Notes under the pieces: generated by a model
Databases searched by the model: none
The model's input: the letters and a program-made list of their open reading frames with translations, nothing else
Told to the model about the DNA's origin: nothing
Position numbers and translations under genes: made by a program
Source: Escherichia phage 24-32N
Strand: one strand, 5' to 3'
Length of the DNA: 64,000 nt
Sequence record: PV933157.1
Shown: positions 37,137 to 37,625 of the stretch, one piece after another
How the letters are laid out: each line of letters opens with the position of its first letter
Position numbering within the stretch: the stretch's first letter is position 1

Positions 37137-37625
37137 ATGTCAGAAGAAATTAAAGTCCATTTCACCAATTATATCGGAACCAAGTGTGTATATGGTTTTC
37201 CGATGAGTAAAGAAACATACTGCAAACTTCGTGGTTGGGATGTACCAGCAGATGAAGATACGCTAGAAGAGGGTTACTTAGTAGAGTACCCAGACTCTAA
37301 GTCCAACCATCCTCAGTTCCGTGGCTATATTAGCTGGTCACCAAAATCTGCGTTTGAAGAAGCATACCGTGATACGAAAAAAGGTTGTACCTTTGGTCAT
37401 GCAGTAGAACTTATGAAAACAGGCTTCAGAATGACCCGTAAAGGTTGGAACGGAAAAGGAATGTATATCACCTTAGTATCCGGTGAAAATTGGGCCATGG
37501 ATAAACATGAAAATACCGTTTATGAGAAACGGGATTGGCTAGGCATTAAAACCATTGATAACCAGTTTATGCCATGGATTCCATCCCAATCAGATGTATT
37601 AGCAGAAGACTGGGTAATTCTATAA
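37137..37625 (+). CDS. DUF2829/Tad2-like protein (candidate Thoeris anti-defence sponge) with N-terminal extension
   Basis: C-terminal 80 aa: RKGWNGKGMYITLV ... QFMPWIPSQSDVLAEDWVIL matches recalled DUF2829 pattern; ATG 37137 with GAGGTAG RBS. Confidence 0.55.
   Translation: MSEEIKVHFTNYIGTKCVYGFPMSKETYCKLRGWDVPADEDTLEEGYLVEYPDSKSNHPQFRGYISWSPKSAFEEAYRDTKKGCTFGHAVELMKTGFRMTRKGWNGKGMYITLVSGENWAMDKHENTVYEKRDWLGIKTIDNQFMPWIPSQSDVLAEDWVIL

Follow-up and report, generated by a model that had tools for sequence, protein, structure and literature searches.

We analysed a 64,000-nucleotide stretch of DNA from Escherichia phage 24-32N (sequence record PV933157.1), referred to here as the window, and focus on a plus-strand gene at positions 37137 to 37625 that encodes a two-domain protein of 162 amino acids. 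The coding sequence begins with an ATG at 37137 and ends with a stop codon at 37623-37625, and a Shine-Dalgarno-like GAGGT (37128-37132), read from the sequence, lies 4 bases 5′ of the start. The C-terminal domain (residues 84-162, positions 37386-37622) is a Tad2-like domain of family PF11195, formerly DUF2829, whose characterized members act as “sponges” for Thoeris immune signals. The N-terminal domain (residues 1-79, positions 37137-37373), hereafter the N domain, is a mobile beta/alpha module that phages attach to many different sponges.

The family phrog_872 matches the protein over its full length (E = 1e-64), and the three peptide strings quoted in a first-pass annotation of the locus, RKGWNGKGMYITLV, QFMPWIPSQSDVLAEDWVIL and QFRGYISWSPKSAFEEAY, are all found in the 162-residue translation. 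The same frame offers an alternative GTG start at 36999. This start is unlikely, because orthologues are 160-166 residues long and because a GC-rich hairpin (37099-37119) would fall inside the extension. A scan for sigma-70 promoters gave no more matches than in shuffled sequence, and is uninformative here because the middle genes of N4-like phages use a phage polymerase.

The first-pass annotation had assigned the C-terminal 80 or so residues to DUF2829/Tad2 and had proposed a profile search as a check. That search bears the assignment out: residues 85-161 match PF11195 (“Thoeris anti-defense 2-like”) with 81.7 bits and E = 5.4e-23, against a curated cut-off of 25 bits, and the alignment spans profile positions 2-72 of 73. 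Also, a phmmer search of PDB sequences returned ModTad2 (9eib, E = 3.1e-16; also 8v3e) and the Tad2 of phage SPO1 (8sme, E = 9.5e-15; also 8wje), with weaker matches to AcrIIA7/HgmTad2 (8kbi, 9kzr) and SptTad2. The match of the C-terminal half to Tad2 is thus far beyond chance.

Residues that contact the ligand are largely retained. In SPO1 Tad2, glycocyclic ADP-ribose (gcADPR) is contacted by W25, N26, W73 and D79 of both protomers, together with I63, T65 and T78, while D67, H71 and S76 coordinate water (Yirmiya et al.). On alignment, W25, N26, W73 and D79 correspond to the identical residues W104, N105, W147 and D153, and I63, T65, D67 and S76 to the identical I137, T139, D141 and S150. The two remaining positions are a conservative change of T78 to S152, as in ModTad2, and the replacement of H71, a water-mediated position, by M145. 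Eight of the ten SPO1 Tad2 contact residues are therefore identical in this protein. Moreover, R101, W104, N105, G106, W147, D153, L155, D158 and W159 are invariant among 63 aligned two-domain homologues.

The C-terminal 79 residues align end to end with SPO1 gp34.65 (8SME, 8SMF, 8SMG, 8WJE), to which they are 45% identical, and with ModTad2 (8V3E, 9EIB), to which they are 49% identical. An AlphaFold2 model of the full-length protein, with a predicted local distance difference test score (pLDDT) of 89.8, places helices at residues 86-94, 123-126 and 151-155 and strands at 99-101, 110-114, 134-138, 144-146 and 159-161. This predicted order (alpha1, beta1-beta2, a short insertion, beta3-beta4, alpha3, beta5) fits the Tad2 fold, in which the W/N, W, S and D of the ligand contacts are kept. 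The clearest differences from these proteins are that characterized Tad2 proteins consist of a single domain of 80-104 residues, whereas the present protein adds an N-terminal domain of 80 residues, and that its insertion is shorter. The beta2-beta3 loop comprises about 19 residues (115-133), compared with 24 in SPO1 Tad2 and 41 in HgmTad2. Because this loop is short, a cyclic-dinucleotide pocket of the HgmTad2 type is not expected. AcrIIA7/HgmTad2 (8KBI) belongs to the same Pfam family and aligns at the N-terminal helix and the WNG motif, but its significant alignment is limited to the first ~30 residues and its long insertion, which binds cGG and cyclic GMP-AMP (cGAMP), has no counterpart here. 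The sequence evidence supports a bona fide Tad2-family domain with conserved ligand-contact residues, from which we infer anti-Thoeris activity of the protein.

Residues 1-80 proved far harder to place. No match was found in Pfam, NCBIfam or PADLOC, and neither phmmer nor hmmsearch identified a relative of the N domain among PDB sequences. AlphaFold2 modelled the isolated domain from a 52-sequence alignment with a pLDDT of 95.1, predicting a strand at residues 19-24, a helix at 25-32, strands at 45-51 and 64-69 and a helix at 70-76; the full-length model adds strands at 10-13 and 17-24. When the N-domain model was compared with the PDB by Foldseek, the best match was SPO1 Tad2, which is non-significant (E = 1.6, template modelling score 0.32), and a structure search of BFVD returned only uncharacterized members of the same N-domain family.

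This family has a consensus (YIGTK-x3-A-x-PM...RGW-x-PADE...EGYLVEY-x-DGG-x2-N...GYISWSPKDVFE-x-AY), in which K16, Y28, R32, W34, E40, E50, Y51, N57, Y64, S66, W67, S68, K70 and Y77 are invariant or nearly so. The domain is acidic, with a net charge of -5 and an isoelectric point of 4.9 here and a family median charge of -3.

A characterized relative was revealed by profile comparison. The N-domain profile aligns by hhalign with residues 1-66 of gp68, a protein of Pectobacterium phage vB_PatP_CB1 (probability 97.7%, E = 2.3e-12, 66 columns), and gp68 is the protein named RyR Tad (Fedorova et al., bioRxiv 10.64898/2026.06.04.730250). On this comparison the two N domains are homologous. The RyR Tad N domain alone is inactive against type I Thoeris, and its crystal structure displays a five-stranded sheet in which the first beta strand is domain-swapped and which contributes to dimerization (bioRxiv 10.64898/2026.06.04.730250). 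Our models are of monomers and are compatible with that published fold. In the hhalign alignment, the gp68 domain lacks R32, G33, W34, E40, E50, N57, K70 and Y77 of the main family. RyR Tad resembles the present protein in joining an N domain to a C-terminal gcADPR sponge and in being encoded in the corresponding hotspot, again of an N4-like phage, and differs in that its sponge has an all-helical fold like RyR Repeat12 instead of a Tad2 fold. A phmmer search of the PDB with gp68 (CB1 17143-17694) returned a 139-residue “Ryanodine receptor Ryr domain-containing protein” (35tm_A, E = 1.6e-11) and the small bacterial “putative ryanodine receptor” chains 3nrt and 6uag.

N domains are abundant. 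A profile search of 1.84 billion representative sequences recovered 2709 clusters at E ≤ 1e-3, of which 1312 reached E ≤ 1e-10, and the domain is present in 124 phage records. It occurs as a stand-alone protein of about 75 residues, such as gp22 of Erwinia phage phiEaP8, whose gene adjoins that for the virion RNA polymerase (vRNAP), and the search with the domain alone that returned this form also returned N domains before Sequestin, after Sequestin and before Tad2. A census of partners among the 145 best representatives yielded PF21825 (Sequestin) in 40, PF11195 (Tad2) in 39, PF13876 (Acb4) in 15, PF24729 (the Acb2/Tad1 hairpin) in 6 and a WDGH domain in one (P0280). The partner region lies C-terminal to the N domain in most representatives and N-terminal to it in 17. 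Consistent with this census, PHROG families 9467 and 32732 are Acb4 and Sequestin fusions of the N domain, respectively, and the N-domain-Tad2 architecture is also present in gp043 of the P22-like phage Kapi1. In the supplement of Tal et al., the SWSPK motif of the N domain occurs at least 94 times in the table of Sequestin homologues, a divergent copy of the domain is carried by two Lockin homologues, and no tested candidate carries it. Taken together, the census, the RyR Tad homology and the Lockin homologues show the N domain attached to sponges of six families with no structural relationship: Tad2, Sequestin, Acb4, Acb2/Tad1, RyR-Tad and Lockin. Its lack of a Pfam model, and the exclusion of fusion proteins from published screens, probably explain why it had been overlooked. 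The suggestion in the first-pass annotation that the N-terminal half might be a fused second module is upheld insofar as this half is a separate domain that occurs alone or with other partner families.

The region as a whole is ~91% identical at the DNA level to Escherichia phages vB_EcoP_SP5M, IME11 and related Gamaleyavirus genomes, which are N4-like members of the Schitoviridae. The 162-residue protein is 87% identical to gp49 of phage N4 (YP_950527.1), which has the same two-domain architecture and the same place between gp48 (Acb4) and the vRNAP gene. Orthologues are labelled “DUF2829 domain-containing protein” in the RefSeq entries of IME11, PhAPEC7, ECBP1, Bp4 and N4, and gp18 of Shigella phage Moonfish is labelled “Thoeris anti-defense 2-like protein”. 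The Tad2 assignment is therefore correct, yet already in public records, so it is not new. The interval between the primase and vRNAP genes of N4-like phages has been described as an anti-signalling hotspot that holds Tad2, Tad3, Acb4, Sequestin and RuvC-like Bes1 orthologues (Fedorova et al., bioRxiv 10.64898/2026.06.04.730250). In the window, three sponge-family genes (Acb4, the two-domain Tad2 gene and Sequestin) fall within a 1.7-kb segment of this interval.

Upstream, the interval begins with the primase gene (29104-31314), an AAA_24/Sak4-like gene (31371-32123), and genes resembling N4 gp45 (32163-32960), gp46 (32960-33514) and gp47 (33516-33959). The gp45-like gene occupies the position of the single-stranded DNA-binding protein by synteny with N4, Moonfish and Mimir124 and has no Pfam match, and the gp46-like gene is RuvC-like in the Moonfish annotation. 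These are followed by a stretch of ~2 kb without convincing open reading frames (ORFs; about 34.0-36.1 kb), which contains two tRNA calls (35754-35911): a tRNA-Ile (35836-35911, anticodon AAT) and, next to it, a tRNA-like call to which no anticodon was assigned (35754-35829). A similar unannotated gap lies between gp47 and gp48 in N4.

Between the tRNA region and the sponge cluster stands a strong terminator-like hairpin on the plus strand (36157-36188). The cluster opens with a 61-residue ORF (36195-36380) and the plus-strand Acb4-family gene (36352-36744; PF13876, E = 2e-25), an orthologue of N4 gp48 with 53% identity whose probable start codon, the ATG at 36364, lines up with that of the N4 gene. 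N4 gp48 is an Acb4 protein by experiment (PMC12657230). In Mimir124, the orthologue of this gene carries an “anti-CRISPR” label from an automated pipeline. Next is a plus-strand ORF of 82 residues (36744-36992; phrog_29724) with no Pfam or PADLOC match. Because Moonfish and Mimir124 lack this ORF and have only about 118 bp at the corresponding place, it is variable hotspot cargo and, judged from sequence, a candidate anti-defence gene. The GC-rich hairpin at 37099-37119, with an 8-bp stem, then precedes the two-domain gene; it resembles a terminator whichever strand is read, and its plus-strand T tail is weak.

Directly downstream of the two-domain gene is a plus-strand ORF of 77 residues (37636-37869; phrog_9565) that is conserved in related phages and for which the sole hint is a sub-threshold match to HTH_11 (E = 0.099). 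Its end is overlapped by 8 bases by a plus-strand Sequestin-family gene (37862-38065; PF21825, crAss001_48-related, E = 2e-17) that encodes 67 residues from its ATG. Sequestin proteins sequester 3′cADPR, a cyclic ADP-ribose, and block type I Thoeris (bioRxiv 10.1101/2025.07.12.664507). The Moonfish orthologue, gp16, appears to be mis-annotated as “putative ATPase subunit of terminase”. The cluster is closed by a strong hairpin resembling an intrinsic terminator (38069-38092, plus strand) that is shared with the convergent vRNAP gene on the minus strand (38098-48468; 3456 residues). This arrangement agrees with the earlier description, which placed the gene in a group of small genes immediately ahead of the late region. 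The 82-residue ORF, the 77-residue ORF and the Sequestin gene have no annotated counterparts around gp49 in N4. The hairpins at 37099-37119 (AAGCCCTC-CTAGT-GAGGGCTT) and 38069-38092 (AAAGCCCCTC-TAGT-GAGGGGCTTT) are nearly identical in sequence and may be copies of one regulatory element.

We consider it probable that the gene, the Gamaleyavirus orthologue of N4 gp49, encodes a two-domain anti-signalling protein, composed of a Tad2 sponge and an oligomerization or accessory N domain. By analogy with solved Tad2 structures, the Tad2 domain would form a homotetramer. An ADP-ribose-derived signal produced by a Thoeris Toll/interleukin-1 receptor (TIR) protein would be captured in two pockets at the protomer interfaces, with W104/N105 and W147/S150/S152/D153 as lining residues, and sequestration of this signal would block activation of the Thoeris effector. 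Candidate signals are 3′cADPR (1′′-3′ gcADPR), histidine-ADP-ribose (His-ADPR) and N7-cADPR, and the choice among them is beyond what sequence can tell. The N domain would act mainly as an oligomerization or accessory module that phages join to many unrelated sponges, which is the simplest reading and the one we favour. The gene is one of three sponge-family genes, with Acb4 and Sequestin, in the hotspot between the replication genes and the vRNAP gene.

Several observations weigh against this proposal. Our literature search found no experimental work with the 162-residue protein, with N4 gp49 or with any fusion of an N domain to Tad2, and such fusions are absent from the experimentally tested sets. 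Tad2 members vary in ligand, and the pocket residues do not tell the ligands apart: ModTad2 inhibits type II Thoeris, which uses His-ADPR, and not type I, and other members also bind N7-cADPR or cyclic UMP (cUMP). The Sequestin gene of the same phage makes a second 3′cADPR sponge partly redundant. Also, in the two-domain proteins the mean pairwise identity of the N domain (62%) exceeds that of the sponge domain as a whole (54%), and K16, Y28, R32, E40, E50, Y51, N57, Y64, W67 and Y77 are invariant in the 63 homologues. Such conservation sits uneasily with a purely structural role, and several of these invariant residues are missing from the RyR Tad N domain that was tested. Finally, the core of the Tad2 tetramer rests on helix alpha1, and an N-terminal dimerizing domain would have to be accommodated there.

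The strongest challenge concerns the N domain, which could itself be a sponge or ligand-binding module for a different immune signal, in which case the protein would be a double sponge comparable to the Tad2-Acb4 and Acb4-Sequestin fusions already published. The domain is small, often has its own gene, as in phiEaP8, and, at whichever end of a protein it lies, is found almost solely alongside sponge domains. Sequestin itself was found through its fusion to known sponges, in a screen that used only Pfam families and would have missed a domain without a Pfam model (bioRxiv 10.1101/2025.07.12.664507). Its polar and aromatic residues are very strongly conserved, the RyR Tad relative dimerizes, and sponge pockets arise between protomers. 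However, the inactivity of the isolated RyR Tad N domain against type I Thoeris argues against this idea, as does the acidity of the domain, given that known sponge pockets are positively charged. The first of these arguments is softened by the lack of the main-family RGW, N57 and K70 in the inactive domain and by the report of a single system. On balance we regard a double sponge as unlikely. A wider formulation, that the N domain is an unrecognized functional family, either a seventh sponge family with its own ligand or a general “sponge helper”, is a tentative possibility; a helper could raise avidity or stability, or could counter host systems that detect sponges. An origin of both halves from one Tad2-like unit by internal duplication, which the first-pass annotation suggested from a weakly similar N-terminal motif, is scarcely credible. 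Both halves do present a superficial motif after a beta strand (..W-x-P-[KS]..F/V-E/L-E/A-A/E-Y/W), and SPO1 Tad2 heads the Foldseek list, at the non-significant score given above. Yet BLASTP of one half against the other gives E = 1.6, hhalign probabilities are 0.24% for profile against sequence and 0.6% and 2.8% for profile against profile, the profile-profile alignment bypasses the motif that had been named, and the N domain is also encountered on its own and beside five further partner families.

Two further alternatives retain the Tad2 assignment and change its target. One is that the Tad2 domain targets, or also targets, signals other than those of Thoeris, such as the cyclic dinucleotides of cyclic-oligonucleotide-based anti-phage signalling systems (CBASS), as HgmTad2 does, or the cUMP and cyclic CMP (cCMP) of Pycsar, as for MoTad2. 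Some Tad2 proteins indeed bind cGG and cGAMP in a second pocket, and MoTad2, which scores as the nearest solved relative, has cUMP as a further ligand at its A-C interface. This seems quite unlikely for the present protein, because the HgmTad2 pocket is built by the 41-residue insertion, the loop here is shorter even than that of SPO1 Tad2, a protein without cyclic-dinucleotide binding, and the adjacent Acb4 gene already covers CBASS signals. The other alternative, an anti-CRISPR function like that proposed for AcrIIA7, we judge very improbable. E. coli is not known to carry a type II-A CRISPR-Cas system. The Mimir124 orthologue carries the automated label “anti-CRISPR protein”, and the sequence is weakly similar to the AcrIIA7/HgmTad2 chains 8kbi and 9kzr, but the label is inherited from AcrIIA7. 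Moreover, Cas9 inhibition by HgmTad2 or other Tad2 homologues was not reproducible (Li et al.), and DUF2829 proteins have been argued to be anti-Thoeris instead of anti-CRISPR proteins (Yirmiya et al.).

Three known proteins were rejected as identities for the N domain. The OB-fold of the phage L decoration protein Dec (PDB 6E3C) gave hhalign probabilities of 0.3% and 0.13%. This idea had been prompted by the filtering of sponge proteins with a “6E3C” domain by Hadary et al. and by a resemblance to GGYLF...SKTAFEANY seen by eye. TadIV-1, which forms a helical dimer and is restricted to T4-like phages, is unrelated. Lockin is reported to be absent from the complete phage genomes of INPHARED, whereas the N domain is found in the phage records counted above, and the two Lockin homologues that contain an N domain carry it as an additional module.

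Fusions of two proven sponges offer the closest architectural parallel. Examples are Tad2-Acb4 in Pasteurella phage Pm86, Tad2-PF21825, and PF21825-Acb4 in Pseudomonas phages YH6 and Ab09 (gp59), all of which combine two small domains in one phage protein and draw on the same set of partner families. Both halves of these fusions are proven sponges, whereas the present protein pairs a Tad2 half with an N domain that is not known to bind a ligand.

The Tad2 call adds little by itself, in that it confirms an existing annotation and places phage 24-32N in a described anti-signalling hotspot of N4-like phages. The useful lead is the N domain, which is abundant and conserved, has no database entry and is found almost only beside immune-signal sponges of unrelated fold. 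If it binds a signal, then the model phage N4 carries a new sponge family. As a universal accessory module it would instead point to a need common to sponges, for example in oligomeric state, in stability or in evading systems that sense sponges.

Either way, the unannotated regions joined to N domains provide a ready list of candidate new sponge domains. Seven matches (P0203, P0244, P0246, P0270, P0271, P0336 and P0346) and ~30 other singletons join the N domain to partners of 45-160 residues that have no Pfam match and no similarity to one another. These partners are candidates for new sponge or anti-signalling domains, and some may be artefacts of assembly or frameshifts. In a separate case, an N-domain-Tad2 fusion of 354 residues (P0251), the Tad2 domain is interrupted by a ~200-residue insertion with HNH_3 and AP2 domains, which looks like a homing endonuclease or intein-like element lodged inside a sponge gene.

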